From Bacteroidota bacterium (GTDB lineage: Bacteria > Bacteroidota > Bacteroidia > Bacteroidales > GCA-2711565): a DNA stretch of 64,000 bases. The DNA is taken from contig JAHIVC010000030.1 of assembly GCA_018816945.1 (NCBI GenBank), positions 13,053-77,052 of the forward strand, in the 5' to 3' direction. Made by a program: the position numbers and the translations under genes. This document shows, piece after piece, positions 18,403 through 54,766 of the stretch (its first letter is position 1; every line of letters starts with the position of its first letter). The notes beneath the pieces were generated by a model. It worked only from the letters and a program-made list of their open reading frames with translations. It was not told where the DNA came from and ran no database searches.

Positions 18403-18413
18403 GTGTTTGATTC

Positions 18414-26606: not shown

Positions 26607-26620
26607 AAGATAATTGAATG

Positions 26621-28254: not shown

Positions 28255-28311
28255 TAAAAAAAATAGGAATCTTTAAATTATAAAGATATAAGTTTAAAAA
28301 ACCATATGTGG

Positions 28312-29010: not shown

Positions 29011-29026
29011 TATATATTTATTTCTA

Positions 29027-36280: not shown

Positions 36281-36563
36281 ATAATTTGTTTTTTAATGGC
36301 CAAATGGAATGCCCCTGAGGTTATTATCATTTCGATTGGTGATTCGCAAATCATTGGCATTTCATGCGTATATAATTTGTTTTTAAAGGTCACATGGAAT
36401 AGCCATGACGAAAATATTCATTCCGGTTGGTGATTTTCTGATCATGGCTATTTCATGCGTTTATAATTTGATTTTAATTGCCGCATGGAATACCCACATA
36501 ATCATTTTCGGTTGGTGTTAAATCCTTCTCGTGGGTATTTCATTATAAATTTAGTTTTTAATT
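36281..36563. repeat. three tandem ~91-bp units (plus a truncated fourth head), each a long imperfect hairpin
   Basis: Unit heads ATAATTTG at 36281, 36372 and 36463. Stems at 36304-36313/36356-36365, 36393-36408/36442-36457 and 36485-36497/36531-36543. Conserved loop core TCATT(T/C)CG(G/A)TTGGTG. The array fills the whole gap between two genes. Confidence 0.9.
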
Positions 36564-37418
36564 ACCAAGTCCAAAAATCTCATCCAAAGCTGTCCATGCG
36601 TCCGTTGGCAATATTTCCAGTTCGGCTAACCGACTACAATCGAGGGTGGTGTTTTTTGCAGCGTTGCTGATACCAGCATCCCTGAAAGAAATTGGCTGGA
36701 TCAGTTCTTCGTCAAAATTTAACCTGTGCGCAAGGTGTATGGCGAGATCGGAATAGGTCATATCCTGGTATGAAGAGAGTTGAAAAATTCCCGGAACCTG
36801 TTTTTCAGCAATTTTTTGTATTGCTGAGAACGCCAATGAAATTGGAACGGGTGATATAACCATATCGGAAAATGGATGAATTACATTTCCCGCCTTCAAC
36901 TCTTTAATCCAGCCTTTTAACAGTGGCATTTCAGGAGTTATAATTTTGCTAAAACGTATAATTGCTACTTTGTTACCTATTTTCAGGAGTTGTTCCTCCG
37001 CTTCAGCCTTCTGGCGACCATATTCGGTTTGAGGTCTGACTGGATCGTTCACTTTTGCAAAAGGGGTATTCCCATTGAATACCGCATTACTGGATAGAAA
37101 AATGACAAAGGCTCCGGCTTCAACCATCTGTTCAGCAAATGCAACAGTCCCTTCAACATTTACACGCCGACTGAATTCAGGATCATTCGCACATTGTTCC
37201 TGAGATGTTATTGCAGCACAGAAAACTACTGTTTTTATTGAAGCGGGAAGTTTTGGCCAGGATTTACTGTCGAGAGTCAAATCGAGAAAAAGGCATTTTT
37301 CATTTACATTGGCAGAAAAACAAGTAGTGCTTAATGCATTATTTCCATCAGCCCCGAATGACGCTACCAAACGACTACCTATTGTTGAGTCACCTCCAAT
37401 AATTAGCACTTCATTCAT
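36558..37418 (-). CDS. SDR-fold NAD(P)-binding protein (RmlD/epimerase-like)
   Basis: MNEVLIIGGDSTIGSRL Rossmann N-terminus after moving the start to ATG 37418 (8-nt overlap with the upstream methyltransferase stop). Confidence 0.65.
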   Translation of the reverse strand: MNEVLIIGGDSTIGSRLVASFGADGNNALSTTCFSANVNEKCLFLDLTLDSKSWPKLPASIKTVVFCAAITSQEQCANDPEFSRRVNVEGTVAFAEQMVEAGAFVIFLSSNAVFNGNTPFAKVNDPVRPQTEYGRQKAEAEEQLLKIGNKVAIIRFSKIITPEMPLLKGWIKELKAGNVIHPFSDMVISPVPISLAFSAIQKIAEKQVPGIFQLSSYQDMTYSDLAIHLAHRLNFDEELIQPISFRDAGISNAAKNTTLDCSRLAELEILPTDAWTALDEIFGLGN

Positions 37419-38076
37419 AAAAAATACAGCTATAATCTCCTGAATACCCACATTTATTAAAAATCCACTCCCACTCTTTTGGGGTATAGAAACATTCACA
37501 AGTAAGTTGCCAATACATCAGATTTACTTTTTCTTCTTCTGTTCGGTAAGAATCTAAAACAATGTATTTATTGACCTTCCCAACACGTTCAATTTCTTTT
37601 AAAGCCTTTTCTATATCTGGGAGATCCAAATTGTGCAAAGTATTAATTGAAAGAACAAGATCAAAACTCTTGTCTTTATATGGTAACTCAATTGCATTTC
37701 CTAATTTCAGAAACGGCATCATTTCCTCTTTTGCGTTGTCCAAAGCATATTTTGAAATGTCAAGACCGAAAACTTCAATCCCGGGGATGGACTTACTGAA
37801 TTCAAATAATAAATATGCTTTTCCACATCCCACATCTAAAATTTTTTGACCAGATTTTAGATTATAATGTTTTACTATTTGATCAGCCACAGGTCGCCAT
37901 CGACCATCATATTGAAATCCTCCATAGCCATACTTTCGATCACCATCCCAATAGTTAAAATCAAACTTTTTGGCAATTTTTGCACATTCTGCTTTATTAA
38001 CTCCAATAACACGCTCACCCAGATAGTCACGAGTGGTCTTTTTATGAATTTTTTCAATAAAATCGATATAAGCCAT
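37411..38076 (-). CDS. class I SAM-dependent methyltransferase
   Basis: KILDVGCGKAYLL (motif I), FDLVLSINTLHN. Confidence 0.8.
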   Translation of the reverse strand: MAYIDFIEKIHKKTTRDYLGERVIGVNKAECAKIAKKFDFNYWDGDRKYGYGGFQYDGRWRPVADQIVKHYNLKSGQKILDVGCGKAYLLFEFSKSIPGIEVFGLDISKYALDNAKEEMMPFLKLGNAIELPYKDKSFDLVLSINTLHNLDLPDIEKALKEIERVGKVNKYIVLDSYRTEEEKVNLMYWQLTCECFYTPKEWEWIFNKCGYSGDYSCIFYE

Positions 38077-38093
38077 TTTATCGCAGTTTATAA

Positions 38094-39155
38094 TTAAAAG
38101 GGTCCTTTAAATTCTTTATTGGGAATATCAAGTGGACTTTTCTGAACAATGCCAAGTTCCTCCTCAGTTTTCTCAGTTTTACCGAGCATTTTTAATACTG
38201 AGTTTATAATGTTGATGGCTCGTGGATGATAGTATTTCGTTAGCCCGGGACTACTCGGAGATGGAAAGTCGGGAAGAGTAAGACGAACAGGATTTGCCTT
38301 AAGAAATCCAAATGCTTCCTCTGATGTTATTGCAATGATTTCGCCGGCAATACCACCAGTTTTCCAGGCCTGATCGGCAACTACCAAATGTCCTGTCTTT
38401 TTAACAGATTCAATAACGCAATATGTATCTAAAGGCCTGATTGAGCGCATATCGATCACCTCAACATCAACCCCAAGTTTTTCCAATACTTTTGCAGCAA
38501 ATAATGATTCTATAACCATATATGAGAATGCAACGATAGTAACATTGGAGCCGGATCTGGCAATATTCGCCTTTCCAATAGGTATTCTAAAAATACCATC
38601 CGGCACATTTCCTGTAATGTTGTGCAACCACCTATGCTCCAAAAAGATAACAGGATTATTGTCTTCAACGGCAGATATCATTAGTCCTTTTGCATCATTT
38701 GGAGTTGCAGGCATTACAACTTTAAGTCCGGGTACATGGGCAAACAGTGCATGAAGGCTTTGTGAATGCTGAGGTCCCTGGCCCCATCCACGCCCAATAA
38801 ACATTCTGATTACCAGAGGCATTGAGGATTTGCCCCCAAACATATAATACCAGTTTGCCGCCTGATTTATGATCTGTTCTGTGGACAGAAGGGCAAACTC
38901 CATCCGGTGATGTGCCATAATAGGTCGCATTCCGGTAAGGGCTGAACCGATTGCCACACCTGTCATTCCGTTTTCAGCGGTTGGCATATCCATTGCTCTC
39001 AACTTGCCATACTTTTCTTGTAACCCAATCGTTGTACCAAAAAATCCGGAGGGATCGGGGACTCCCAAACCCATAATATACACTGTATCGTCTTTTGCCA
39101 TGCACAAATCAATGGCCTCAGATAGTGCCTTTGCATAGGTAATAATTCTTTCCAT
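38094..39155 (-). CDS. 2-oxoacid dehydrogenase E1 beta-like subunit (transketolase Pyr/C-terminal domains)
   Basis: 353 aa; VYIMGLGV, MDMPTAENGMTGVAIGSALTGMRPI, IRPLD. Confidence 0.85.
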   Translation of the reverse strand: MERIITYAKALSEAIDLCMAKDDTVYIMGLGVPDPSGFFGTTIGLQEKYGKLRAMDMPTAENGMTGVAIGSALTGMRPIMAHHRMEFALLSTEQIINQAANWYYMFGGKSSMPLVIRMFIGRGWGQGPQHSQSLHALFAHVPGLKVVMPATPNDAKGLMISAVEDNNPVIFLEHRWLHNITGNVPDGIFRIPIGKANIARSGSNVTIVAFSYMVIESLFAAKVLEKLGVDVEVIDMRSIRPLDTYCVIESVKKTGHLVVADQAWKTGGIAGEIIAITSEEAFGFLKANPVRLTLPDFPSPSSPGLTKYYHPRAINIINSVLKMLGKTEKTEEELGIVQKSPLDIPNKEFKGPF

Positions 39156-39176
39156 TTTACTTCTTTTTGACTTTAA

Positions 39177-40136
39177 CTAGGCGTAAAGGTGAGTATAAAG
39201 CGATGCCTCTTCCGGATAGGGCGCTGATTTTGCAAAAGTAAAAGATTCGTCAATCTCCATATTTATTAGATTGGACATCTGCTGAATCTCAAATTCAAAA
39301 TTTTCATCTGCAGCTAATTTCAATGCAAGCATTTTTAGCGGATCCCTCTCTTTCCAGGAATTGAATTCTTCTTCTGTCCTATACCCCAATTGATTGTCAA
39401 AATTGGGTCCGCAATGCTCATAATAGCGATAGGTTGAAAGCTCCAACAATGTCGGTCCACCACCCATGCGAGCCTTTTCAACAGCCTTTTTTGTAGCTTC
39501 ATATACTGCTATAATATCATTCCCGTCACATTTATTTGCGTCAACTCCATGAGCTTTAGCAATGTCAATTAAATTTCGTTCTTGGGGTTGTCTGACATAA
39601 AGAGGGGAGTAAACGGAGTACAGATTATTTTCGCAAATGAAAATTACAGGTAGTTTATGTAAAGCTGCATAATTTAAGCTTTCTGAAAAAACTCCTTCTT
39701 CTGTTGCAGCATCACCAAAAAAAGCAACGCTAACCAGCGATTTATTTTGCATTTTAAAACCAAGGGCAATACCAACGCCTATTGGAATTGTACTTCCAAC
39801 AATTGGTACTGCATAAAACCCAATAGTAGGATCAACAAGATGCATTGAACCCCCTTTCCCTCCGCAGCATCCAGTTACTTTACCATAAAGTTCGCTTATC
39901 ATTGCTTTAAGATCACCCCCTTTTGCTAAATAATGTGCGTGCGAGCGATGGGTGCTTAAGGCAAAATCATTTTCTCCCAATGCATTACATACACCAACAG
40001 CTGTTCCTTCCTGCCCGACACTGAGGTGAACCGGGCATCTCATTTCCTGCTCAGGATAGATTTCAGCAATTTTTTCTTCAACTAGTCTGATTCGAAGCAT
40101 TTTATAGTATAATGATTTCAATTCTTTATATTCCAT
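39177..40136 (-). CDS. ThDP-dependent 2-oxoacid dehydrogenase E1 alpha-like subunit
   Basis: ThDP-binding motif FFGDAATEEGVFSESLNYAALHKLPVIFICENN; YRYYEHCGP. Confidence 0.85.
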   Translation of the reverse strand: MEYKELKSLYYKMLRIRLVEEKIAEIYPEQEMRCPVHLSVGQEGTAVGVCNALGENDFALSTHRSHAHYLAKGGDLKAMISELYGKVTGCCGGKGGSMHLVDPTIGFYAVPIVGSTIPIGVGIALGFKMQNKSLVSVAFFGDAATEEGVFSESLNYAALHKLPVIFICENNLYSVYSPLYVRQPQERNLIDIAKAHGVDANKCDGNDIIAVYEATKKAVEKARMGGGPTLLELSTYRYYEHCGPNFDNQLGYRTEEEFNSWKERDPLKMLALKLAADENFEFEIQQMSNLINMEIDESFTFAKSAPYPEEASLYTHLYA

Positions 40137-40205
40137 AAGAGTTTTTTTAAATAAACAATAACATACAAATTTTATTAGAATTCTTTTTAAGTAAATGAAT
40201 CATCG

Positions 40206-41312
40206 TTAAAGAGAATTATAAAATTTCTTTATTACAAAGATTGTATATGCCAGAAGATCTTCATTAATGTATTGGTGTGCGGGAAGAGTGAGTATCTCTT
40301 TTCCATATGTTTCAGATACCGGAAAATCCCCAATTTTATAACCAAGATTTTTGGCAGCTTCCTGCAAATGCAGTGGGATAGGATAGTGTATCTTTGCATC
40401 AATACCGTTTTCTATTAAATATGCTTTTAGTTCATCTCTTCTTTCAAACCGAGCCATATATAGGCTGTAGGTTTCTCTGTATCCATGTGGTCTGGGAGGA
40501 ACTTTAACAAAGGGATATAATTGTTTTAACCCTTCATCTAATATTTTAGCATTATTATTGCGCATTACCACAGTCTCTTCTACTGTTTTTAGCACATGTC
40601 CTGCCACGATGGCCTGTAGTGGTTGTAATCTCATATTAACTCCCCATATACGATTATGATCTCTATCAACCATGCCATGGTTTCTATACATTCTCATCCA
40701 GTCTGCAAGCCTATCATCATTGGTACTTACCATCCCGCCATCACCCATTACGTTCAAGGGTTTTAAGGGGTGCATACTCCACGCGCTTATATGACCTATA
40801 GTGCCAGCGTGACAATTGTTTACAGTTCCACCTGGGGCCATACAAGCATCTTCAAGCACCTTAACACCATGGAATTGTGCGATTTTCATGATAGCCTGAA
40901 TGTTAGGAGAAGCACCTCCCCAGTGAACAGGGAGAATTACTTTGGTTTTAGGGGTAATTGCATCAACAATCTTATTTTCATCCATCTGATAGCGATCGTC
41001 AATATCTATAAAAACAGGACGAGCGCCAACAGCAATAATAGCTCCGATAGTTGCATAAAAAGTAATCGGAACTGAAATAACTTCATCATCTGGACCAACC
41101 CCTATGGCTTTTAAAGCAAGAATTAATGCATCTGTTCCTGTATTTGTTCCGATCACATGCTTACATCCAATAAAATCAGCAAATTTCTTTTCGAATTTCT
41201 CCACATAAGGGCCAAGTGTAAATTCTGTTGAACAAATAAGATCTTTCCATTCAGTAAAGATTTCCTCATTATTAGCAAACTGCATCGGGAGGTAGTTGTA
41301 CGGTACTTTCAT
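40206..41312 (-). CDS. DegT/DnrJ/EryC1/StrS-family sugar aminotransferase
   Basis: 368 aa; GTDALILALKAIGVGPDDEVI, SMHPLKPLNVMGDGGMV (PLP-Lys region). Confidence 0.85.
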   Translation of the reverse strand: MKVPYNYLPMQFANNEEIFTEWKDLICSTEFTLGPYVEKFEKKFADFIGCKHVIGTNTGTDALILALKAIGVGPDDEVISVPITFYATIGAIIAVGARPVFIDIDDRYQMDENKIVDAITPKTKVILPVHWGGASPNIQAIMKIAQFHGVKVLEDACMAPGGTVNNCHAGTIGHISAWSMHPLKPLNVMGDGGMVSTNDDRLADWMRMYRNHGMVDRDHNRIWGVNMRLQPLQAIVAGHVLKTVEETVVMRNNNAKILDEGLKQLYPFVKVPPRPHGYRETYSLYMARFERRDELKAYLIENGIDAKIHYPIPLHLQEAAKNLGYKIGDFPVSETYGKEILTLPAHQYINEDLLAYTIFVIKKFYNSL

Positions 41313-41319
41313 TGGAATT

Positions 41320-42435
41320 TTATCTTTTTGTATAATAATTTTTAATCAATTCAGCAACCCAATCTTGTTGTTGATAAGTCATACTGGGGAATAGAGGCAA
41401 GCTTAGGATCCGATCAACATGTTTCATCGTTTGGGGAAAATCAGAAACTTTATATCCCAAGTATTTAGCAGCCGGTTGAAGATGAATAGGTGTTGCATAG
41501 TGAATCAATGCCTGAACTCCATTTTCAATCAAATAATTTTGCAAACCATCTCTTTGTTCCGCTAAAATAACATAGGTTTGATAAACACAATATTCACCAG
41601 GGCCTTCATCAGGGGTCTTAACATAAGGTTTTAATAAACGATTGTATCTTAATGCCATTTCTCTTTTGGCGGCATTATAGTTGTCAAGTTGGCGCAGCTG
41701 GATTCTCAAAAATGAGGCTTGTAATTCATCAAGCCGGGTATTATAACTCCAGAAGTCGCATTGTTCCCGATTGACAAGGCCATGATTTCTTGCGATCTTC
41801 AATCGGTTATAAAGAGCTTCATGTTTTGTAGTAATCATTCCGCCATCACCTATTGCTTTCAAATTCTTCAATGGATGCAGACTAAAACAAGCAGCATCAC
41901 CCCAACTTCCCACACGTTTGCCATGTATTGATGCCCCAACAGATTGTGCCGCATCCTCTATAACGAATAGATTATATTTCTTGGCGATCTCAAGGATCTG
42001 AGGCATTTTTGCCGGCCTACCGGTTAAGTGTACAGCGATGATAGCTTTTGTTTTTTTGGTAACAACCGATTCAAGTTTATTGGGATCCATATTTCCATCC
42101 TCTCCAATATCAACAAATACAGGTTTGGCTCCTGCCAATGCAATTGAAGATGCTGAAGCAATAAATGAATTTGAAACTGTAATTACCTCCGCATCCTTCT
42201 TCAAATTTAAAGCTTGCATGGTCAGATAAAGAGCATCAGTTCCATTGGCCACACCCAGAGAAAACGGTGTCTGACAATAGGAGGCAAATTCCATTTCAAA
42301 ATTTGACAATTCAGGTCCCAGAATGTATTGACCACTTAGTAACACTTTTTCAAAGACTTTTATATAATCTTCCTTAAATGCTTTTGCTTCTTCCCCAAGA
42401 GCCGCATAAGGGACCGTCCATTGTTTTTGTGTCAT
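41320..42435 (-). CDS. DegT/DnrJ/EryC1/StrS-family sugar aminotransferase
   Basis: GTDALYLTMQALNLKKDAEVI, SLHPLKNLKAIGDGGMI. Start set at ATG 42435 (MTQKQW), giving an ATGA overlap with the Nudix stop. Confidence 0.85.
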   Translation of the reverse strand: MTQKQWTVPYAALGEEAKAFKEDYIKVFEKVLLSGQYILGPELSNFEMEFASYCQTPFSLGVANGTDALYLTMQALNLKKDAEVITVSNSFIASASSIALAGAKPVFVDIGEDGNMDPNKLESVVTKKTKAIIAVHLTGRPAKMPQILEIAKKYNLFVIEDAAQSVGASIHGKRVGSWGDAACFSLHPLKNLKAIGDGGMITTKHEALYNRLKIARNHGLVNREQCDFWSYNTRLDELQASFLRIQLRQLDNYNAAKREMALRYNRLLKPYVKTPDEGPGEYCVYQTYVILAEQRDGLQNYLIENGVQALIHYATPIHLQPAAKYLGYKVSDFPQTMKHVDRILSLPLFPSMTYQQQDWVAELIKNYYTKR

Positions 42436-42875
42436 GATTTTTCGAAAGTTAATTTTGATACTTTTAGAGCCAAATCCCAAACATCAATTAAATATCCTGG
42501 AATATCATAGAATTTAGCCTGATCACGATTTATAAATTTCAGGTCTTGGCCTTCCATACACTTATAATTTTGAATTTCATCATAAAATGCCCAATAAACT
42601 GTTAACATATATGGATTCCAACCCTCAACGTGGTCTTCGAATTCAGTAAGTAATTTCAGATCAGGGCAGTCATAATTGGTTTCTTCAAGCAATTCTCTGC
42701 GTGTACAGGTTTTCATATCCTCATTTTGTTCAGCATGTCCTCCTGGGGGTACCCATTTTCCTGAATGTCTAAGGCCTTCTTTATGATCGCGCAGTTGCAT
42801 CAAAACAGCCCCATCTTTACGAATGAGCATAACAGCCCCCACACGCCCAGATAATCGATTATCATTAAATGCCAT
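42432..42875 (-). CDS. Nudix hydrolase
   Basis: Nudix box GGHAEQNEDMKTCTRRELLEETNY (Gx5Ex7REUxEExGU). Confidence 0.8.
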   Translation of the reverse strand: MAFNDNRLSGRVGAVMLIRKDGAVLMQLRDHKEGLRHSGKWVPPGGHAEQNEDMKTCTRRELLEETNYDCPDLKLLTEFEDHVEGWNPYMLTVYWAFYDEIQNYKCMEGQDLKFINRDQAKFYDIPGYLIDVWDLALKVSKLTFEKS

Positions 42876-42888
42876 TTGTGTTCAATTT

Positions 42889-43776
42889 TTAAGACTTAGA
42901 TTTTAATCTCCTAAATGTCTTCTCAATACCATCGGCTAATGTTGTATATCTAAAATCAGGAAAAGAAGCTAAAGAGGCAGAATTATCAAACGGTCTGTAT
43001 CCGTTATGAGGCATTGGCACTAATCTGGGTATGGTGTTTATGATTGTCGGAGGATTAAAATATTCTGAAACCATTTCAGCAATTTCCCGAAACGAAACAG
43101 CAGTACCTGTAGCGATATTTAAAACGCCTTCACTATAATGAAGAATAATAAGCCGTAAAAGATTTACCAAATCGTCAATATAAACATGATCGCGTCGTTC
43201 TTCCCCTTCTCCAAATAGCGTAATTTCCTTATTGGAAAAAGCAAGCCGAAGAAACTGATTAGGACCATATCCATTATGGGTATCTTCGGCACCATAAAGT
43301 AAACTTGGACGCAGTATAGCCATTGGAACAGAACAAACCTGTTTTAACATAATCTCTCTGCACAAATGCATAATACCATGTATTGAACCCGGTTCCGCAT
43401 TTGAAGTTTCTGTCAGGGGATTAGGTCTATCAGCATAAACAGCATCAGAACTCAAATAAATAAGATGTTTTGGTTGTTTTTTTTCAATAGCGTCACATAC
43501 TGCTTTCATCATAGAGATGTTTTGAAGAAGCATTTCATTGTTTTTACAGGGAGCAATGGCTGAAATTACAACCAGAGTATCGTATGGATGCAGAATATTT
43601 GACAAACGATCAGATGCCTCTGCATCAAACAGATTCATGTTTTTTTCCGTTAAGGCCAGAAAAGGAATTTTATTTTCATATAGATTTTTAACTAGGGAAG
43701 CACCGACAAATCCACCGGCACCCATTACAACAACTCTATTAGGAATTGTTTTTACAAAGGTGTTATGTTTAAGCAT
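42889..43776 (-). CDS. NAD-dependent epimerase/dehydratase family protein
   Basis: VVVMGAGGFVGASL Rossmann motif; SDR-like length. Confidence 0.75.
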   Translation of the reverse strand: MLKHNTFVKTIPNRVVVMGAGGFVGASLVKNLYENKIPFLALTEKNMNLFDAEASDRLSNILHPYDTLVVISAIAPCKNNEMLLQNISMMKAVCDAIEKKQPKHLIYLSSDAVYADRPNPLTETSNAEPGSIHGIMHLCREIMLKQVCSVPMAILRPSLLYGAEDTHNGYGPNQFLRLAFSNKEITLFGEGEERRDHVYIDDLVNLLRLIILHYSEGVLNIATGTAVSFREIAEMVSEYFNPPTIINTIPRLVPMPHNGYRPFDNSASLASFPDFRYTTLADGIEKTFRRLKSKS

Positions 43777-43802
43777 ATGGTAGTTTTCATGATAATTAAG
43801 TC

Positions 43803-45089
43803 TTATTTCTTTTTGATATCAATGGGTGCACCGAGTGTAAAATAATCCAGCCCTGCATTTTTCACCTGCTCATAATCTAAAATACCATACGGATCAATAA
43901 CAATCTTACCTTTCATCTTTTGTGCAAGTTCATTTGCAGAAATATCTTTGAATTCAGGCCATGCAGTCATAATTAATAATGCATCTGCATTAATTGCTAC
44001 ATCAATAGCCTTACTTGCATTAATTATATTTTTACCTGCAATTTCAGTTTTAACAATAGGATCATAAGCAGTAACCCGACATTTGTTAAGGTTATTAATT
44101 AAAATAATTGCAGGAGAGTTTTTAATGCTATGAGTATTTTCTTTGTAGGCCAAGCCAAGTATTCCAATAGTAGCATTTGGATTCTCTTTTAATAGTACTT
44201 CATTTAATATTTTAAAAGGCCAGTTTTTCCTGTAATTACTATTATACACCCAAGAGGCCACTATTCCTCCATCTGTTTCATTTTTTTTTGCTAATTCTAG
44301 CACTGTAATTAGGTCTCTTTCTAAGTTTCCACCTGAAATTCCTAAACCCGGTTGAATATAACTATATTGTCCAATACGGCGATCTAGTTTGAGAGCCGGA
44401 ATAATTTCTGACCATTTTGCACCAATTTTTTCGCAAATTTCAGCCATTGTATTTGCGGCACTAACTGATGCCACCAAGCATACATTAATAGAAATTTTTG
44501 CTAACTCGGCACTTTCATAGCGCATAGCCAAAATGGGACAATCAAAGGCCTTTAAATAGTTTTCAAAAATTACAGGTAATGGTAATTGAGGGTTCGCACA
44601 GCCAATGATATATCTTTCAGGGTATAAGCCTCTTTCTACAGCTCTTCCAAAGATTAAAGTTTCTACCTGATAAATAAGGCGCTCAGAATCAAAATCGATC
44701 TGTCTGGTGAAACCAGGAGGAACCTGTGATAAAATAACCAATATTGCAGATGAGTTCAACGAAGGCTTGATCTGCTCAATAATATTATTAATGGGATTGA
44801 GATCGCTAATTCCCTCATCGTTAGTTGGAATATCAACAGAAACATAAACAATATCGCATTCTGAAAGTAGAGCTGTATCATTTGTAAAAGTCAGCAGCTC
44901 TTTATATTTTTTAAATAATTCATCCAGTTGAGGCTCTTCAATAGGTAATATGGCCATATTCAATTCATCAATAAGTTTCTTGTCATCCTGAAATCCAATA
45001 ATCTGATATCCTTTTGAAGCAGCAGATATAGATGAAATAATTCCAAGATGAGTCATCCCCGCAAATCCAATAATAGTTTTTTGGTTCAT
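43803..45089 (-). CDS. UDP-glucose/GDP-mannose dehydrogenase-family protein with Asn in place of the catalytic Cys
   Basis: LDRRIGQYSYIQPGLGISGGNLERD aligns by eye to D.RIG....P..G.GG.C.PKD. C-terminal GLAYKENTHSIKNSPA...AYDP matches the UDP-binding domain. Confidence 0.7.
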   Translation of the reverse strand: MNQKTIIGFAGMTHLGIISSISAASKGYQIIGFQDDKKLIDELNMAILPIEEPQLDELFKKYKELLTFTNDTALLSECDIVYVSVDIPTNDEGISDLNPINNIIEQIKPSLNSSAILVILSQVPPGFTRQIDFDSERLIYQVETLIFGRAVERGLYPERYIIGCANPQLPLPVIFENYLKAFDCPILAMRYESAELAKISINVCLVASVSAANTMAEICEKIGAKWSEIIPALKLDRRIGQYSYIQPGLGISGGNLERDLITVLELAKKNETDGGIVASWVYNSNYRKNWPFKILNEVLLKENPNATIGILGLAYKENTHSIKNSPAIILINNLNKCRVTAYDPIVKTEIAGKNIINASKAIDVAINADALLIMTAWPEFKDISANELAQKMKGKIVIDPYGILDYEQVKNAGLDYFTLGAPIDIKKK

Positions 45090-46015
45090 ATTAAAGCCCT
45101 TCCCTCTTTATGGAGTTTTTTTAAAAATTTATTAATAATAAGATCGTTTTCAATATTGCCATCTTTACCGTTTAAACAAAGATTTTTAAAATGGGAATAT
45201 TCTAATTCCCAAGTTGGATCAGCTTTCACAAGTGTTACAGATTCTTCCGGGGGCCTTCCACTTGGGAGAACTCTTTTTCGATAAGTAAATGTGGAAGGTC
45301 CCCATTTGCAAAGTGAGTCAATATGTATACTTCCATTTTCTCCATAGACTTCTGCAACGAAATGATTTCTCCAACTAAGAATACTCATTTCCATTTCAAC
45401 CTGAATTGAAGAGGTAGATCCAAAAATAATATTATCGAAGGAATTATTTTCGAAACATTTGGCACTCCATATTTTAATATCTGCTGGAATTGAATTAAAG
45501 GCAAACATAAATGTGTCTAAAAGATGCGAACCCAAATCGGGCAAAACACCACCACCATCAGGCAAATCACGCCAAGGGGAATTACGAACATCTCTTGCCG
45601 TACCATTTCCATAGAAAAACCGAACTTTATATATTTTACCCAAAGCCCCAGATTCAATGGTTTCTTTTAACCGAATAAAATGTGGTTCAAATCTATGGTT
45701 GTAAGCAGTATAGCACACAATGTTTTTTGCCTTTACCAGATTGGCAAGGTTTTCAAGTTCCGCTTGATCTTCTGAAATCAAAGGTTTTTCAACTAATACG
45801 TGTTTGCCATGTTGAGCCAGATAACTAATAATTTCAATTTTTGGTTCATCAGGAATACATAGTAGAGCAGCATCAAAAAGGTCTAAAGGTACATCTTCAA
45901 TGTCTTTAAAGTCAGCATCAGAGGTTGCAGGATCGACGGTTGCAACCACATCATTACCAGCAATTCTCTTTCGCTTAACTCCTTGAATACCAAGACCAAC
46001 AACAATAACTTTCAT
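45086..46015 (-). CDS. Gfo/Idh/MocA-family oxidoreductase (WbpB-like position)
   Basis: MKVIVVGLGIQG, VLVEKPL; 4-nt overlap with the downstream gene. Confidence 0.8.
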   Translation of the reverse strand: MKVIVVGLGIQGVKRKRIAGNDVVATVDPATSDADFKDIEDVPLDLFDAALLCIPDEPKIEIISYLAQHGKHVLVEKPLISEDQAELENLANLVKAKNIVCYTAYNHRFEPHFIRLKETIESGALGKIYKVRFFYGNGTARDVRNSPWRDLPDGGGVLPDLGSHLLDTFMFAFNSIPADIKIWSAKCFENNSFDNIIFGSTSSIQVEMEMSILSWRNHFVAEVYGENGSIHIDSLCKWGPSTFTYRKRVLPSGRPPEESVTLVKADPTWELEYSHFKNLCLNGKDGNIENDLIINKFLKKLHKEGRALI

Positions 46016-46024
46016 GTGATTAGA

Positions 46025-47581
46025 TTATTCTTCATTAAAATTTGCTGTTTTTTCAACTGCATCAAGTTTAGCCAATACATCCATTGGATTAATAGGTATA
46101 TTTCCATCAAACTCACATTCACAGGCTGCAGCCATTGATCCTATGATGGTCGCAATTGCTTCTGATCCACTTGAAAGCAACGAAAGTGTTGCATAAGCCA
46201 AAAGTGCATCGCCAGAGCCAACAGCATCTAAAACTCTTTCGGCAAAACTATCTATTGCAAAGAAGTTGCTTACGCATTTTTTTTCTTCAGATGGAATTGT
46301 AAAGACACCTCTGTCTCCAAGCTTTAATATTAAAGATTTACAATTCGTAATTTCTTTTAGTGAACCTGCAAGTTTTCCAACTGTTGAATCCTGGTCTGCA
46401 AGTGAAAAGCGCGCTTCTCGTTCATTTGGAGTTAAAAGATCGAAGTTTTTAAAATCTGTAATATTTCCCCATCGGGAGGCAACCTGACTATCGGCTACGC
46501 GAAATGTATTAATTGGAATTGCCTCAATCAACCTATTAATCGTTGATCGATTAAATATTCCATGCCTAAAATCACTAAATACAATAGCATCCGTTGAAGT
46601 ATTCTTAATACTATCGATCAGTTGATCAAGAATTTTAACAGAGATAGTAGCGTTATCAAGTGTGTCTATTTTAAGTAGTCGATACCCCCCCGCTATAATT
46701 ACATTTTTATTGACAGTCGGCCTTGTAGGGTCAATTATGGGGATTGTATTTATTCCTGTATCTTTAAGTCCTGCAATTACAAAGTCTTTTAATTGATCAT
46801 TGCCCAGAACTGTTGAAAATACAACATCTGCTCCAGCTGCTTGAAGATGTTGGGCAACAATTCCTGCACCTCCGATATAATCATCCTTACCAATATAACG
46901 AACACTGAAAGTAGGAGTTTTTGTCTGACCACCAATCAGAACAGTTCTTGTGTAAGTATCTACAATAGTATCACCAACTACATGAACCTTCAGACCTTTT
47001 AGTGATGAAAGTGTATGCCTAAGGTCATCAAATGAAATATTTTCAACATTCATAAGCGAAAGTAATTTTTCGATATGAATTTTAGGTCTAGAAAGGTTTA
47101 TGAACGTTGAAGATGAATACACAACATCTCCTGGTGTAAAAACCATCTCACCTCCATATTCATTAACAACATTAGCCTCTTCTTGAGTACTAGGAGGTAG
47201 ACCTGTTGAGGTGTATTCAAATCCTTTAGCAAAATAATTTGGTTTAATTTTCCTTATAATTTTCAGAGGTTTTTGGTTGTCATCAATAATAACATAATCT
47301 ACCATTTCATAGGCAGCCAGATTCAAAGCTCGCAATTGTTCTGGAACGTGAGGTCGATAAATTCCCTTATCGATGTATTTGTCTGAGGTAATACTTGCTA
47401 TTAGAATATCGGCCTTTGATTTAGCATACGCCAAATGGCGTACATGCCCGGGATGAACAACATCAAAAACTCCATGACAAAGAATTACTTTCTTTTCACG
47501 AGAAAAAGGACCTATTATTTCTATTAAATCGTCAATTATTTTAAGTTTTGGACGATACTTCTCAAAAAAATCTTGTTCCAT
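46025..47581 (-). CDS. bifunctional nucleotidyltransferase (N-terminal) / PfkB sugar kinase (C-terminal), HldE-like with reversed domain order
   Basis: N-terminus: HGVFDVVHPGHVRHL (HxGH cytidylyltransferase-fold motif). C-terminus: IGGAGIVAQHL and DAVGSGDALLA (PfkB signatures). Confidence 0.8.
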   Translation of the reverse strand: MEQDFFEKYRPKLKIIDDLIEIIGPFSREKKVILCHGVFDVVHPGHVRHLAYAKSKADILIASITSDKYIDKGIYRPHVPEQLRALNLAAYEMVDYVIIDDNQKPLKIIRKIKPNYFAKGFEYTSTGLPPSTQEEANVVNEYGGEMVFTPGDVVYSSSTFINLSRPKIHIEKLLSLMNVENISFDDLRHTLSSLKGLKVHVVGDTIVDTYTRTVLIGGQTKTPTFSVRYIGKDDYIGGAGIVAQHLQAAGADVVFSTVLGNDQLKDFVIAGLKDTGINTIPIIDPTRPTVNKNVIIAGGYRLLKIDTLDNATISVKILDQLIDSIKNTSTDAIVFSDFRHGIFNRSTINRLIEAIPINTFRVADSQVASRWGNITDFKNFDLLTPNEREARFSLADQDSTVGKLAGSLKEITNCKSLILKLGDRGVFTIPSEEKKCVSNFFAIDSFAERVLDAVGSGDALLAYATLSLLSSGSEAIATIIGSMAAACECEFDGNIPINPMDVLAKLDAVEKTANFNEE

Positions 47582-47582
47582 A

Positions 47583-48584
47583 CTATTTATTCTTAGTCAT
47601 ATATTTAAACCATGATTTTGTTGCAGTTTCAATACTTTCTGGATTCCAAAGCGGAGCGTCTTTCCAATTTTCAATATTGGCGGTCATTTTTGCAACTCCT
47701 TCTGGAAAACTAATTTGTGGTTCCCATGAAAGTTGATTTTTAATTTTCGTAATATCTGCCCATGTGCAATCAGGTTCTCCTGGACGTTTTGGAAGGTAAA
47801 CAACATCCCCACCAAGTAAATCAACCAGATTGTTAACACTTTGAGGATTACCAGCACCAACATTGTAAATTTCTCCAATATGTTCTGTTTCTGCCGCAGC
47901 CAGAAATGCAGTGGCAATATCAGTTACAAAAATAAAGTCACGACTTTGACTACCATCACCAACAACTGTAAAAGGCATTCCCTCTAATTTTTGTTTGAAG
48001 AATACTCCAAATACAGCACCATAAGCTCCAGTAGTGCGAACTCTTGGACCATAAGCGTTAAATATCCTAATTGAATTAACGGGAAGACCATAAACCTTTT
48101 GCCAGTGGAAAGCGGTTTGTTCACCAATATACTTACTGAAGGCATAAGGATATTCAGGGCATATTTTATGATCTTCATTAGTTGGTGTATCAGCGAGTCC
48201 ATAACAAGATGATGATGCAGCATAAACAAATTTTTTCACAGCATGATATCGAGAACATTCAAGTACATGCGAAGTACCTTGAATATTAGTTGACATGTAC
48301 TCTAAAGGTCTTTCGATAGACGGAACAATATCTCCAATACCGGCAAAATGAAAGACATAATGAGCGCCGGAAAAAATTTCTGAATCTGGTTTTAAATTTA
48401 GAATATCCTCTTCAAAAAATTCAAAATCAGGATGATTGCTATGATGAGATAAGTTTGATGATCTTCCTCCAGTCAAATTATCAATTACCCTAACCCTGTA
48501 ATTTCTTTTAATTAGGAGGTCAACCATGTGACTGCCAATGAATCCGGCTCCCCCAGTAACAATAGCGATCGGTTTTATACTCAT
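47583..48584 (-). CDS. NAD-dependent nucleotide-sugar epimerase/dehydratase (extended SDR)
   Basis: IVTGGAGFIGSHMVDLL, YAFSKYIGE. Confidence 0.8.
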   Translation of the reverse strand: MSIKPIAIVTGGAGFIGSHMVDLLIKRNYRVRVIDNLTGGRSSNLSHHSNHPDFEFFEEDILNLKPDSEIFSGAHYVFHFAGIGDIVPSIERPLEYMSTNIQGTSHVLECSRYHAVKKFVYAASSSCYGLADTPTNEDHKICPEYPYAFSKYIGEQTAFHWQKVYGLPVNSIRIFNAYGPRVRTTGAYGAVFGVFFKQKLEGMPFTVVGDGSQSRDFIFVTDIATAFLAAAETEHIGEIYNVGAGNPQSVNNLVDLLGGDVVYLPKRPGEPDCTWADITKIKNQLSWEPQISFPEGVAKMTANIENWKDAPLWNPESIETATKSWFKYMTKNK

Positions 48585-49588
48585 CTGGCCTGAAGTCTTT
48601 TTAATCGTCGAACATTGAAGTAGAAATCATCATCAAAACTGTTTGGGAGCTTTCCTTCTTGAAAGGCATGACAAAGATCACGTATAGCTTCTTCTATTGA
48701 ATGTGTTGGTTGAAATCCAAGAACTCTTTTAATCTTATCAGAGTTAATATGATATGAGCGATTATCATCACTTGGCGTAGTAGTAATTTCGATATTTTTT
48801 TTCTCAGGAAATTCCTTTTGAACAACTTTCTTTACTAAATGTGCAATATCCATGATCGACATGTTTTGATATCCTACATTAAAGATTTCGTTTTTAATCT
48901 TTTCAGATGGAGCATTCAATAATAGTTCCACAGTGTCGCAATAATCTTGTACATGAAGATTTGGTCGCAATTGGTCCCCACCAAATACTGTGATCTTATT
49001 TTTATTAACGGCGTGATTGGTAAGAATGTTTACTGATAGGTCAAGTCGCTGCCTTGGGGCATAACCACATACCGTTGCCGGGCGAAAGATAACACCAACA
49101 AAATTATCATCTGTATGTTTCTTAAGAAGTGGTTCACACATACCTTTATATTTATTATATAGTGTTAATGGTACAAGGGGGTGATCTTCGGTAACATCTG
49201 GCTTATCAGAAACTCCATAAACTGAACTTGAGGAGGCATAAATAAATCTTTTTACTCCAGCTTGTTTTGCGGCAATTACCATGGGTTCAAATGCTTCAAG
49301 ATTTACACTTGTCGATAAACGTTCATCTAATTCAAAACTGGCATCATTTGAAATGCATGCCAGACTCACGAATGCATCATGTCCTTTACAAGTATCAAGA
49401 ATTTTTTTAGTCTCACGGATATCACCCTCAATAATTTTGAGGTTTGGATTTTCCTTAGGCAAAAAATCATTTCCAAAATGCATAATGTCATAAACAGTGA
49501 CCCTATAACCATGTGATAAAAGTTGAGGAATTAATAAACTGCCAATATAACCAGCTCCTCCTGTAACAAAAACAGATTTAAATTGCAT
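48581..49588 (-). CDS. NAD-dependent nucleotide-sugar epimerase/dehydratase (extended SDR)
   Basis: VFVTGGAGYIGSLL, YNKYKGMCE; 4-nt overlap with the downstream gene. Confidence 0.8.
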   Translation of the reverse strand: MQFKSVFVTGGAGYIGSLLIPQLLSHGYRVTVYDIMHFGNDFLPKENPNLKIIEGDIRETKKILDTCKGHDAFVSLACISNDASFELDERLSTSVNLEAFEPMVIAAKQAGVKRFIYASSSSVYGVSDKPDVTEDHPLVPLTLYNKYKGMCEPLLKKHTDDNFVGVIFRPATVCGYAPRQRLDLSVNILTNHAVNKNKITVFGGDQLRPNLHVQDYCDTVELLLNAPSEKIKNEIFNVGYQNMSIMDIAHLVKKVVQKEFPEKKNIEITTTPSDDNRSYHINSDKIKRVLGFQPTHSIEEAIRDLCHAFQEGKLPNSFDDDFYFNVRRLKRLQAR

Positions 49589-49617
49589 ATGATTTAATTT
49601 TTTATTATTTCTTATAT

Positions 49618-50343
49618 TTATTTCAGATCAATCGTGTAACCTGCTGTCTTGGCATCATTATAAAACATGGACACTGTTTCGAGTGAGAAAGTGGTTAAAT
49701 CCTTGCCTACAACAGATAGTTTCTTCAACACATCTGGAGTAACGGTTATTATATGGCAACCCACTTCATCAGCCTGAAAGATATTCAACAATTCCCTTGG
49801 ACTAGCCCAGAGCACTTCAGCTTTCGATTTGCTTGAAGCAATTTTTACTGCTTCTTTCATAAGAGGGACAGGATCAAAGCCCGTATCTGCAATTCGACCA
49901 GCAAAAACAGAAAGAATTGCAGGAGTGTTAGGATTTAAAGCATCTACGATCTCTTTTACTTGAGCAAGTGTAAACATTGCAGTTATATTACAAATAACCC
50001 CCTTATCTGAGAGTGTTTTAACAAGATTTGCTGTACTCTCTCCTTTGGTATTGGTGATTGGAATTTTTACATTAACATTTTTCCCCCATGATGCTATCTC
50101 GATAGCTTGAGCCTCCATATTGGGAATATCATCGGCAAAAACCTCAAATGAAACAGGCAGGTCTGGAACTAACTGAAGAACCTTTAGTGCAAAAGATTTA
50201 TAATTTTGAACTCCTGCTTGACGCATTAGTGTTGGGTTGGTCGTAAAACCTTTAATATATGGTTGGCTGTAAAGCATTTCAATGCTTTTCAAATCTGCAC
50301 CATCCCCAAAAATTTTTATTTTAAGATTAATGATTTTTTTCAT
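49618..50343 (-). CDS. transaldolase / fructose-6-phosphate aldolase family (short TalC/Fsa type)
   Basis: GFTTNPTLM and NVKIPIT (Schiff-base Lys region), NITAMFT. Start set at ATG 50343 (MKKIINLKIKIFGDGAD). Confidence 0.8.
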   Translation of the reverse strand: MKKIINLKIKIFGDGADLKSIEMLYSQPYIKGFTTNPTLMRQAGVQNYKSFALKVLQLVPDLPVSFEVFADDIPNMEAQAIEIASWGKNVNVKIPITNTKGESTANLVKTLSDKGVICNITAMFTLAQVKEIVDALNPNTPAILSVFAGRIADTGFDPVPLMKEAVKIASSKSKAEVLWASPRELLNIFQADEVGCHIITVTPDVLKKLSVVGKDLTTFSLETVSMFYNDAKTAGYTIDLK

Positions 50344-50353
50344 AAAATGCATG

Positions 50354-54745: not shown

Positions 54746-54766
54746 TTTATCTTTTAACTTTCGCCT

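Follow-up and report, generated by a model that had tools for sequence, protein, structure and literature searches.

The window, by which we mean the whole 64-kb stretch of DNA analyzed here, contains two adjacent minus-strand genes for the alpha and beta subunits of an E1-type, ThDP-binding enzyme. The alpha gene (39177..40136, 319 aa) belongs to the E2-less clade described below and matches Pfam family E1_dh (PF00676) over residues 11-309 with an E value of 3.7e-64. In its product, GDAATEEG (aa 141-148) and ENN (aa 169-171) together make up the ThDP motif GDG-x(26)-NN. The beta gene (38094..39155, 353 aa), separated from the alpha gene by 21 nt, matches Transket_pyr (PF02779, 4.9e-29) and Transketolase_C (PF02780, 1.6e-32), and its product has a clade-specific C-terminal extension ending in LDIPNKEFKGPF. 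These matches agree with the first-pass annotation, which had described an E1 alpha with this motif next to a transketolase-like E1 beta. Alpha His241, the equivalent of human alpha-His263, is kept, as are beta Glu61 and beta His130, and all three residues are near-invariant in our alignments. Both E1 genes are thus intact, with the ThDP motif and the catalytic Glu and His residues present. The nearest solved structures for both subunits are PDH E1 subunits. No ALS-like, single-chain ORF (TPP_enzyme_N/M/C) appeared in Pfam searches of the window ORFs that are 100 aa or longer.

Partners of a dehydrogenase complex were sought in several ways. Among all non-nested ORFs of 100 aa or longer in the 64 kb, Pfam detected no Biotin_lipoyl, 2-oxoacid_dh, or Pyr_redox domain. 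tblastn of the same 64 kb with three E2 and two E3 queries from E2-linked operons gave nothing at E ≤ 1e-3, and a free lipoyl protein and an E2 lipoyl domain used as queries reached a best E value of 1.7. The earlier statement that the window holds no lipoyl-E2 or E3 gene was borne out by all of these searches. By tblastn, E2 or E3 genes were found within 10 kb of related E1 pairs in 0 of ~90 loci; the comparison operons (L092, L093, L096, L099, and L100) do encode an E2 with their E1. Both window subunits score below the NCBIfam PDH equivalog cut-offs, with 290.7 for alpha against TIGR03182 (cut-off 393.85) and 309.4 for beta against NF006667 (cut-off 321).

We constructed a neighbor-joining tree from concatenated alpha and beta sequences of 83 E2-less pairs and six E2/lipoyl-linked pairs, with 60 bootstraps. 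The window pair groups with the 83 E2-less pairs, and the bipartition from the six linked pairs was recovered in 60/60 replicates. The E2-less clade includes L086, a trioxacarcin-type pair from a Streptomyces deoxysugar cluster whose alpha subunit is 78% identical to TxnB3, and the actinomycete pairs occupy near-basal positions in this clade. Identity of the window alpha is higher to TxnB3 (48%, E 3e-107) than to E2-linked alphas (41-42%). A subunit phylogeny of this kind had been proposed in the first-pass annotation, which named clustering with housekeeping PDH or acetoin E1 as the contrary outcome; the pair instead fell outside the E2-linked group, with the TxnB3-like L086 on the same side of the split as the window pair. 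One clade member, L091 from an S. griseofuscus plasmid, adjoins genes for a condensation-domain protein, an ACP, and a PPTase, not sugar genes.

An alignment of 90 full-length betas revealed a C-terminal tail of ~26 residues (codons 38094..38171, minus strand, in the window) with the pattern D-[VI]-P-x3-F-x-G-P-[FY]-COOH, which is present in 80 of 84 E2-less betas and in 0 of 6 E2-linked betas. Together with residues common to the window pair and L086, this tail forms the clade signature, as defined in this analysis. The shared alpha residues are R33, P35, Y69, C90, E146, S174, and E240, and the shared beta features are R84, R122, W124, Q126, R175, and the GP[FY] C-terminal tail. Several of these are extra arginines in the loop just preceding the catalytic beta-His, where they would suit an anionic NDP-sugar acceptor. 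As judged from these sequence comparisons, the window pair is not a housekeeping E1 and belongs to a separate, widespread lineage without E2/E3 partners.

The E1 genes lie in a capsule locus within a minus-strand cassette of 16 tightly packed sugar genes (36558-51489), running from a SIS-domain gene to the last of four SDR genes. Intergenic spacing across the cassette ranges from -55 to +69 nt, with the exception of the methyltransferase/SDR4 overlap. This overlap is 89 nt by the longest-ORF call (SDR4 at 36558-37499) and 8 nt if SDR4 starts at ATG 37418, directly ahead of its GxxGxxG motif, so that the 8-nt overlap reported earlier holds with the latter start. A gap of 283 nt follows SDR4. 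Scanning 35-54.9 kb for promoters and terminators gave counts indistinguishable from those of shuffled sequences and was uninformative.

The genes upstream of the E1 pair resemble a heptose-type activation pathway. The cassette opens with a divergent, GmhA-like SIS-domain sugar-phosphate isomerase (50893..51489; PF13580, E 8.9e-07), for which NCBIfam gave no GmhA match, and a GmhB-like HAD-IIIA phosphatase (50354..50947; NF006506 124 bits, below the cut-off of 178; TIGR01656 135 bits). A small transaldolase follows (49618..50382; PF00923; TIGR02134 341.6 bits, above the cut-off of 281.95); its presence as a dedicated enzyme hints that the ketose is not a heptose. SDR1 (48581..49588; Pfam Epimerase 4.2e-35) is a candidate NDP-heptose C4-dehydrogenase that would make a 4-keto acceptor; its best solved structure is 6vo6 (E 1.7e-32), which we take to be C. 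jejuni Cj1427. SDR2 (47583..48584) is 4,6-dehydratase/epimerase-like (Epimerase 5.1e-55, GDP_Man_Dehyd 3.1e-54), with epimerases and dehydratases as its closest PDB entries. The next gene (46025..47581) encodes an HldE-like bifunctional protein, NT-PfkB, with the domain order reversed, in which an N-terminal nucleotidyltransferase (CTP_transf_like, aa 35-126) precedes a C-terminal PfkB kinase (aa 235-490); the corresponding rfaE domain II (aa 28-161) and domain I (aa 191-496) matches are both under cut-off. For the GmhA, HldE, and GmhB roles (isomerase, 1-kinase, 7-phosphatase, and nucleotidyltransferase), the right families are therefore present, each under its equivalog cut-off and with the HldE domains reversed. 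SDR1 and SDR2 are candidates for the NDP-4-keto-sugar step, both from suitable families and both conserved alongside the E1 pair.

Further genes complete the cassette. A GFO/IDH/MocA oxidoreductase (45086..46015; Pfam) overlaps the next gene by 4 nt, and that gene encodes an NDP-sugar dehydrogenase-like protein (43803..45089; Pfam, NCBIfam TIGR03026) without the catalytic cysteine, with GGNLERD in place of GGxCxxKD. This substitution is invariant in 15 orthologues, and we rejected a WbpA/B/E-type uronic-acid pathway formed by GFO, UDPG_DH, and DegT genes because the dehydrogenase is Cys-less in all of them. Downstream are the epimerase/reductase-like SDR3 (42889..43776; Pfam), a Nudix hydrolase (42432..42875; PF00293, E 2.4e-13) of a kind that recurs in related loci, and two DegT aminotransferases. 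DegT 1 (41320..42480, likely start ATG 42435; PF01041, E 2.7e-101) has sugar aminotransferases as its best PDB matches, and DegT 2 (40206..41312; PF01041, E 1e-95) is closest to 3uwc (E 2.9e-101), presumably a C. burnetii aminotransferase. The PLP lysine is kept in both (SLHPLKNL and SMHPLKPL, respectively), which led us to reject ColD/E1-type 3-dehydratase roles for them. Beyond the E1 pair lie a class I SAM methyltransferase (37411..38076; Methyltransf_31, E 1.1e-21) and the RmlD-like reductase SDR4 (36558..37418; PF04321, E 1.7e-26). The two DegT genes, Nudix hydrolase, methyltransferase, and several SDRs that had been noted around the pair in the same operon are all present on the same strand.

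The neighborhoods of related pairs were compared across 43 non-redundant loci whose flanks were complete. Because clustering of neighbors from de novo ORF calls brought in miscalled antisense ORFs in high-GC loci, counts were taken by tblastn instead. E1 beta adjoins E1 alpha in 43/43 loci; NT-PfkB is present in 34/43, SDR1 in 33/43, SDR2 in 34/43, and the methyltransferase in 26/43, DegT-less loci among them. In a set of 89 loci, SDR1 lies directly upstream of E1 alpha in 26. Two DegT genes, directly flanking E1, occur in 20/43 loci, and 16/43 have no DegT gene. The E1 pair is thus tied more strongly to the heptose/octose-type module (34/43) than to the DegT genes (20/43 with two). A survey of co-occurrence with DegT and SDR genes had been suggested in the first-pass annotation; co-occurrence is evident for the SDRs and weaker for DegT. 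Across at least 15 phyla, E1 pairs accompany a heptose-type module consisting of the SIS isomerase, the reversed-domain HldE-like protein, and two SDRs. The E1 pair is rare in Bacteroidota, which account for 2 of the 80 best loci, but taken as a whole the module is widespread. A YerE-like, ALS-type ThDP gene lies next to the E1 pair in L005-L008 and a split transketolase in L010 and L079, suggesting that E1 may have a role other than C4 branching there.

We consider it probable that the alpha/beta pair is an E2-independent heteromeric ThDP enzyme of the AviB1/B2 and TxnB3/B4 kind that branches an NDP-keto sugar. Knockout of txnB4 abolishes the C4 two-carbon-branched (4-C-acetyl) sugar of trioxacarcin (PMC5659172); with this phenotype, the E2-less clade, the sub-cut-off scores, and the identity to TxnB3, the earlier AviB1/B2-type proposal of a two-carbon unit placed on an NDP-keto sugar is the best-supported reading. 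The active site formed by both subunits would decarboxylate a 2-oxoacid, most likely pyruvate, to give hydroxyethyl-ThDP. The hydroxyethyl unit, bypassing lipoamide, would then attack as a carbanion the carbonyl of a keto-sugar that the operon supplies in nucleotide-activated form, and the product would bear an acetyl group that could later be reduced, aminated, or methylated. Because E1 pairs accompany the heptose-type module, the probable acceptor is a heptose or octose in NDP-4-keto form rather than a hexose. Its synthesis would start from a ketose phosphate and employ the SIS isomerase, both domains of NT-PfkB, and the HAD phosphatase, followed by C4 oxidation by SDR1 or SDR2, and the end product would be a C9-C10 branched, possibly diamino, capsule sugar. 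The donor, acceptor, position of attack, and final product are proposals, with pyruvate as donor and the regiochemistry carried over by analogy from the genetics of the relatives. The first reading of the locus is supported in its two-carbon branching and is refined as to the acceptor, which is probably heptose- or octose-derived, the SIS, HAD, transaldolase, and reversed-HldE genes having been overlooked. More tentatively, the cassette (36558-51489) may encode a lincosamine-like pathway to a higher-carbon sugar that starts from a transaldolase-made ketose phosphate, with the E1 pair adding a two-carbon branch or extension to give a C9-C10 branched diamino sugar. We know of no glycan in which a sugar of this type has been described.

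These assignments were weighed against other roles for the pair. It could be the E1 of a conventional pyruvate or acetoin dehydrogenase with its E2 and E3 elsewhere in the genome, for example supplying acetyl-CoA at the capsule locus. The PDH E1 subunits found as best structure matches would fit this role, as would the retention of the alpha-His and beta-His of lipoamide chemistry, which makes the sequence on its own compatible with a lipoyl acceptor encoded elsewhere; the partner search spanned the 64-kb window, and Moses et al. took the Coxiella homologues as PDH (PMC5423948). A housekeeping E1 was nevertheless rejected on the basis of the tree, with its 60/60 split, the sub-equivalog scores of both subunits, the clade-specific beta tail, and the lack of E2/E3 in the window and within 10 kb in ~90 loci. 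Since the pair is also strictly housed in sugar operons, in at least 15 phyla, we regard a conventional E1 as highly improbable. The pair might otherwise acylate the DegT-made amino sugars, through acetyl- or acyl-ThDP or by loading a carrier, to yield N-acylated rather than C-branched products. By Pfam, the cassette from SIS to SDR4 has two aminotransferases and no N-acyltransferase gene, 20/43 loci have a pair of DegT genes immediately next to E1, L091 has its condensation-domain, ACP, and PPTase neighbors, and an ACP-like ORF (29027-29329) lies downstream in the window. This ACP, however, is part of a separate FabH/FabG/AMP-ligase block ~9 kb away, the conserved neighborhood of the pair includes neither an oxidant nor a carrier gene, 16/43 loci have no DegT gene at all, and loss of TxnB4 is loss of a C-branch, making N-acylation improbable.

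The leading competitor is a ThDP carboligation other than C4 branching of an NDP-sugar, either chain extension at a side-chain aldehyde or ketone or a DXS/transketolase-like reaction on a sugar phosphate, such as the use of hydroxypyruvate to form a ketose phosphate feeding the SIS/NT-PfkB module. The strongest co-occurrence of the pair is indeed with the SIS/NT-PfkB/SDR module (34/43 loci), and cassettes of the window type add a transaldolase, a GFO oxidoreductase, and a Cys-less NDP-sugar dehydrogenase, the family set of the lincosamide octose, a side-chain pathway (PMC12945683). The YerE-like and split-transketolase genes alongside E1 in some loci likewise suggest non-redundant roles. Against this, the only relatives examined by genetics modify C4 of dTDP-hexoses in pathways where the module is absent, and they share their active-site signature and tail with the glycan-type pairs. 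The 26 loci with SDR1 directly upstream of E1 alpha also favor C4 chemistry, provided that 6vo6 is Cj1427, in which case SDR1 resembles an NDP-heptose C4-dehydrogenase. We consider such an alternative carboligation unlikely and retain branching of an NDP-keto sugar as the preferred assignment.

To our knowledge, E1-type ThDP enzymes have been linked to branched-chain sugars in only a handful of actinomycete antibiotics, and only by genetics. Our literature search, within a limited set of papers, found no paper on E1-type genes in O-antigen or capsule clusters. Judged by gene content and sequence, this E1 lineage is common yet unrecognized among the surface-polysaccharide genes of many phyla, where it usually accompanies a heptose-type activation module. 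The beta GP[FY] tail offers a simple sequence signature for recognizing it. Current annotation of these proteins as pyruvate or acetoin dehydrogenase misdirects metabolic reconstructions, as when Coxiella homologues are read as a source of acetyl-CoA. If the chemistry is confirmed, these loci would produce a new class of glycan sugars. Cultivable carriers include Azospirillum oryzae KACC 14407, Planctobacterium marinum K7, Ferrovibrio xuzhouensis KCTC 42182, and Leptospira fluminis.

A similar gene set is described in the phase-I LPS region of C. burnetii (CBU0674-CBU0693). There, CBU0674 is a phosphoheptose isomerase and CBU0676/0677 are SDRs (PMC5843353, PMC5423948, PMC13552124). CBU0678 is a reversed-domain HldE with the architecture of the window NT-PfkB and is essential for phase-I LPS (PMC5843353). 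The "pyruvate dehydrogenase" genes CBU0686, 0692, and 0693 are numbered within cbu0664-cbu0704, an LPS region assigned to virenose synthesis (PMC5843353, PMC5423948, PMC13552124), and their published interpretation is acetyl-CoA supply. Among our loci, L038, from an uncultured Coxiellaceae, combines the E1 pair with two DegT genes, the methyltransferase, and SDRs; no named C. burnetii protein was among the best 120 homologues of the Coxiellaceae E1 alpha. The connection between C. burnetii and the E2-less clade is thus a literature one, drawn from gene descriptions, with CBU0692/0693 compared by annotation. If the lincosamine-like reading is true, the E1 and reversed-HldE module of at least 15 phyla would explain the genes of this region that have no assigned role, among them CBU0678, needed for full-length LPS, and CBU0692/0693, and confirmation of the chemistry would give a testable role to genes numbered in a virulence-determining LPS region.

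In comparison with characterized enzymes, the window pair resembles the heterotetrameric E1 of pyruvate, acetoin, and branched-chain 2-oxoacid dehydrogenases in fold, ThDP motif, and catalytic Glu and His, and its subunits are 41-46% identical to plasmid-borne E2-linked pairs. It differs in having no E2/E3, in its sub-cut-off scores, in its own clade and ~26-residue beta extension, and in active-site-loop changes in beta such as F→R84, S→R122, and T→W124. YerE, from yersiniose A biosynthesis in Yersinia pseudotuberculosis, is proposed to use ThDP to transfer a pyruvate-derived two-carbon unit to C4 of an NDP-4-keto sugar (PMC4753412). The proposed chemistry is thus the same, and in a Gram-negative glycan, but YerE is a single-chain, ALS-like flavoprotein (TPP_enzyme_N/M/C) rather than an E1 alpha/beta pair. 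The lincosamide octose pathway (LmbR, N, P, K, O, M, L, Z, and S; PMC12945683 Table 1) corresponds to the whole cassette, not to the E1 pair, and the match is at the family level: transaldolase, isomerase, kinase, phosphatase, nucleotidyltransferase, epimerase, NDP-sugar dehydrogenase-like protein, NAD(P) oxidoreductase, and aminotransferase. An E1 pair is absent from the Lmb pathway, whose kinase and nucleotidyltransferase counterparts are fused in the window cassette.

The known two-component, "pyruvate dehydrogenase-like" enzymes of actinomycete deoxysugar pathways are TxnB3/TxnB4, KstD7/D8, AviB1/AviB2, and Pau11/Pau12. TxnB3/B4 are the trioxacarcin counterpart of AviB1/B2, with genetic support (PMC5659172), and the roles of AviB1/B2 and Pau11/12 are proposed (PMC4753412). 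Like the window pair, these enzymes have separate alpha and beta genes, no E2/E3, and a setting amid NDP-sugar-modifying genes, and the trioxacarcin-type Streptomyces pair shares with it the clade, the signature residues, and the beta GP[FY] tail. The actinomycete enzymes serve antibiotic dTDP-2,6-dideoxyhexose pathways with RmlA, RmlB, and a 2,3-dehydratase, whereas the window pair belongs to a capsule locus, where its neighbors are the heptose/octose-type activation genes, two aminotransferases, the methyltransferase, and the Nudix hydrolase.

The E1 pair lies within a single, very large minus-strand polysaccharide locus of the Bacteroidota type. Genes for a NusG/UpxY-like protein (59651-60256), a Wza-like exporter (56750-59443), and Wzz (54767-55915) stand at its head, all on the minus strand, and biosynthetic genes then take up more than 50 kb. 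ORF 39177-40136 encodes an E1 alpha subunit (PF00676, E 3.7e-64) carrying the ThDP motif GDAATEEG...ENN at residues 141-171, and ORF 38094-39155 encodes an E1 beta subunit with Transket_pyr and Transketolase_C domains, in agreement with the first-pass annotation of both genes. The lack of a lipoyl-E2 or E3 gene that it had reported also held: across the whole 64 kb, ORFs of 100 aa or more gave no match to lipoyl, E2-catalytic, or E3 families, and a tblastn search of the window with E2, E3, and lipoyl queries from genuine E2-linked operons returned nothing.

Both subunits belong to a cassette of 16 consecutive minus-strand genes running from 51489 to 36558, with spacing of -55 to +69 nt at all junctions but one and a gap of 283 nt after the last gene. 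The cassette begins with a divergent GmhA-like SIS isomerase (50893-51489), a GmhB-like HAD-IIIA phosphatase (50354-50947), a small transaldolase (49618-50382), SDR1 (48581-49588), SDR2 (47583-48584), and an HldE-like NT-PfkB fusion (46025-47581) in reverse domain order, the nucleotidyltransferase domain preceding the PfkB kinase. These are followed by a GFO oxidoreductase (45086-46015) that overlaps by 4 nt an NDP-sugar dehydrogenase-like gene (43803-45089), and then by SDR3 (42889-43776), a Nudix gene (42432-42875), DegT1 (41320-42480), DegT2 (40206-41312), E1 alpha, E1 beta, a methyltransferase (37411-38076), and an RmlD-like SDR, SDR4 (36558-37418). Every neighbor previously named (two DegT proteins, Nudix, methyltransferase, and several SDRs) was found, while the upstream SIS, HAD, transaldolase, and NT-PfkB genes had been left out of that account. 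The exceptional junction is that of the methyltransferase and SDR4, nominally -89 nt in the longest-ORF call and -8 nt when SDR4 starts at ATG 37418, the start with which the 8-nt overlap described earlier is recovered.

DegT1 and DegT2 both retain the PLP lysine, indicating that they are aminotransferases and ruling out 3-dehydratases. The dehydrogenase-like protein, of the UDP-glucose/GDP-mannose dehydrogenase family, has GGNLERD where the family has GGxCxxKD, with Asn in place of the catalytic cysteine; this motif does not vary among 15 orthologues from E1-linked loci, and the protein is therefore not a uronic-acid-forming enzyme. The nearest solved structure to SDR1 is PDB 6vo6 (E 1.7e-32), which we take to be C. 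jejuni Cj1427, a GDP-heptose C4-dehydrogenase. The chemistry of Cj1427 has been described (PMC10680097).

We asked how the pair relates to housekeeping E1 enzymes. Both subunits score under the NCBI curated PDH cut-offs (alpha, 290.7 vs 393.85; beta, 309.4 vs 321), and their closest database relatives, at 60-88% identity, all come from sugar clusters like that of the window. When one genome was scanned per species, the best 80 loci (47-84% identity) spanned at least 15 phylum-level groups, among them Bacteroidia, Chloroflexota, Thermodesulfobacteriota, Nitrospirota, Elusimicrobiota, Verrucomicrobiota, Chlamydiota, Cyanobacteria (Prochlorococcus), Spirochaetota (Leptospira fluminis), Streptomyces, and Alpha-, Beta-, and Gammaproteobacteria, including a Coxiellaceae MAG. 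Bacteroidota are rare in this set (2/80), and none of the 80 scanned loci has an E2 or E3 gene within 10 kb. Carriers that can be cultivated include Azospirillum oryzae KACC 14407, Planctobacterium marinum K7, and Leptospira fluminis. For comparison, we used six plasmid-borne pairs encoded beside E2, E3, or a lipoyl protein (L092, L093, L096, L098, L099, and L100). A neighbor-joining tree of concatenated alpha and beta sequences from 89 pairs separated these six from the 83 E2-less pairs in 60/60 bootstrap replicates; the window pair sits with the latter, which answers the clustering test proposed in the first-pass annotation in favor of a separate clade.

This clade carries recognizable sequence signatures. 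E2-less betas have a C-terminal extension of ~26 residues ending D-[VI]-P-x3-F-x-G-P-[FY]-COOH (window codons 38094-38171, minus strand; terminal residues …LDIPNKEFKGPF), which 80 of 84 E2-less betas carry, those of the window and Streptomyces pairs among them, as against 0/6 E2/lipoyl-linked betas. Three of the four exceptions, the basal L085, L089, and L095, lack the whole extension, and the fourth (L088) retains it and ends RVPF. Positions more than 90% conserved in the clade and differing in E2-linked pairs include alpha R33, P35, Y69, C90, E146, S174, and E240 and beta R84, R122, W124, Q126, and R175, all common to the trioxacarcin-type pair. Several are new arginines in the loop immediately before the catalytic beta-His130. 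Judging from sequence, these arginines, and perhaps the tail, might make the lipoyl-lysine entrance suitable for an anionic NDP-sugar.

One E2-less Streptomyces locus, L086, is a classical deoxysugar/aromatic-polyketide cluster encoding an NDP-hexose 2,3-dehydratase, thymidylyltransferase, EryCIII-like glycosyltransferase, 4,6-dehydratase, and 3,5-epimerase. The L086 alpha subunit shares 78% identity with TxnB3, from the trioxacarcin cluster. For the window alpha, identity to TxnB3 is 48% along the full length (E 3e-107), compared with 41-42% to E2-linked alphas. TxnB3/B4 are assigned to attachment of a pyruvate-derived two-carbon side chain at C4 of a branched octose, deletion of txnB4 gives products without this octose, and the pair has been grouped with KstD7/D8 and the avilamycin enzymes (PMC5659172). 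The AviB1/B2-type sugar branching put forward in the first-pass annotation is the reading best supported by this identity and by membership in the E2-less clade with L086, and would apply to the window pair as a predicted function.

Genomic company was counted in a non-redundant set of 43 loci that extend 9 kb or more to each side of E1 alpha. E1 beta is adjacent in 43/43, and a reversed NT-PfkB (34/43), SDR1 (33/43), and an SDR2-like gene (34/43) are near E1 alpha more often than at least one DegT (27/43) or two (20/43), indicating that a heptose-type activation/oxidation module, not the aminotransferases, is the most constant partner. A methyltransferase occurs in 26 of the 43, GFO with the Cys-less dehydrogenase in 11, NeuB in 8, and transaldolase in 7. 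SDR1 is directly upstream of E1 alpha in 26/89 loci, and a Verrucomicrobia MAG has a gene-by-gene match to the window-type cassette (58-77% identity). In L001, the closest metagenomic relative, a GFO/PtmF-like gene downstream of NeuC is in two pieces of 157 and 152 aa (18047-19048), which suggests a frameshift or assembly error.

The cassette has other biosynthetic neighbors in the window. Two NeuB-type synthases (33982-35034 and 15978-17135), a NeuC-like hydrolysing epimerase (31915-33141), three CMP-sugar-type cytidylyltransferases (30199-30915, 18414-19172, and 14027-14761), and a PseB/LegB-like dehydratase (19175-20242), all on the minus strand, amount to at least two nonulosonic-acid pathways in 14027-35034, with a TIGR04372 glycosyltransferase (35072-36274) between them and the cassette. 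An acyl-chain module (25263-29329, minus strand) comprising a 100-aa ACP-like ORF with an LDSLG motif, a FabG-like SDR, a metallo-beta-lactamase-fold protein, a FabH-like KAS III, and an AMP-ligase presumably produces an N-acyl substituent. Window positions 1-8000 have ~30% GC (36-41% elsewhere), encode glycosyltransferases, FkbM-type methyltransferases, and a 613-aa protein without a family match, and may be the serotype-specific end of the locus. A full-length tmRNA gene (RF00023, 156 bits; 61908-62275, minus strand) lies just upstream of the capsule locus, a '23S rRNA intervening sequence protein' family gene (PF05635, E 4e-39; 56199-56555, minus strand) lies between the Wza-like exporter and Wzz, and ~1.45 kb between Wzz and an ABC transporter (53316-54766), where neither strand has an ORF above 83 aa, may hold regulatory sequence or a decayed gene.

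We consider it fairly probable that the E1 pair adds a pyruvate-derived two-carbon unit to an activated keto-sugar. In the pathway we infer, including donor, acceptor, regiochemistry, and product, sedoheptulose-7-P, or possibly octulose-8-P because the cassette has a dedicated transaldolase, would undergo isomerisation, 1-phosphorylation, distal dephosphorylation, and nucleotidylation, and SDR1 or SDR2 would form a 4-keto intermediate. The E1 pair would decarboxylate pyruvate and add the hydroxyethyl carbanion to the 4-keto carbonyl; aminotransferases, methyltransferase, and reductases would finish the sugar, the new acetyl ketone being a plausible aminotransferase substrate.

Some loci encode a second ThDP enzyme beside the pair, either a YerE-like ALS-type protein (L005-L008; L005 13671-15455) or a split transketolase (L010 12193-13940; L079 16432-18142), often with B12-radical-SAM genes nearby. 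Such co-residence would fit formation of a different C-C bond by the E1 pair, which might extend a side chain or act on sugar phosphates in a transketolase/DXS-like manner; we regard this as rather unlikely. The E2-less pair of L091 (S. griseofuscus plasmid pSGRIFU1, 11998-14044), with a GPY tail, adjoins a condensation-domain protein, ACP, PPTase, and ketosynthases, not sugar genes, and the clade may therefore serve non-sugar acceptors too. This condensation domain and ACP, and the lack of an N-acyltransferase gene in the cassette, would fit supply of an N-acyl group by the E1 pair, in our view a very unlikely role. A conventional dehydrogenase complex with remote E2/E3, set against the bootstrap separation from E2-linked pairs, is extremely improbable.

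The two-carbon addition that we favor is chemistry anticipated by precedent, and our literature search found no function assignment for E1-type genes in capsule or O-antigen loci; the E1 pair belongs to a widespread, uncharacterised module. Experiments are warranted by its breadth, its mis-annotation, the diagnostic tail motif, and a possible link to Coxiella. The C. burnetii phase-I LPS region is reported to contain a phosphoheptose isomerase (CBU0674), two SDRs (CBU0676/0677), and CBU0678, an HldE with a 'reversed domain arrangement' that is essential for phase-I LPS (PMC5843353), whose role was still termed unclear in 2026 (PMC13252051) and which shares the nucleotidyltransferase-kinase architecture of the window NT-PfkB. 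CBU0686, CBU0692, and CBU0693, horizontally acquired 'pyruvate dehydrogenases' interpreted as acetyl-CoA supply (PMC5423948), have locus numbers within cbu0664-cbu0704, the LPS region to which virenose synthesis has been assigned (PMC13552124). Going by these published gene descriptions, the region appears to match the E1/heptose-type module in architecture, which we offer as a lead. The lincosamide octose pathway (PMC12945683) resembles the cassette at the family level only, sharing a transaldolase, isomerase, phosphatase, nucleotidyltransferase, epimerase, dehydrogenase, NAD(P) oxidoreductase, and aminotransferase. Overall, the best-supported assignment of the E1 pair is a putative AviB1/B2-TxnB3/B4-type enzyme recruited into a surface-glycan pathway, where its acceptor is probably a higher-carbon sugar, different from those of the AviB1/B2 and TxnB3/B4 systems.
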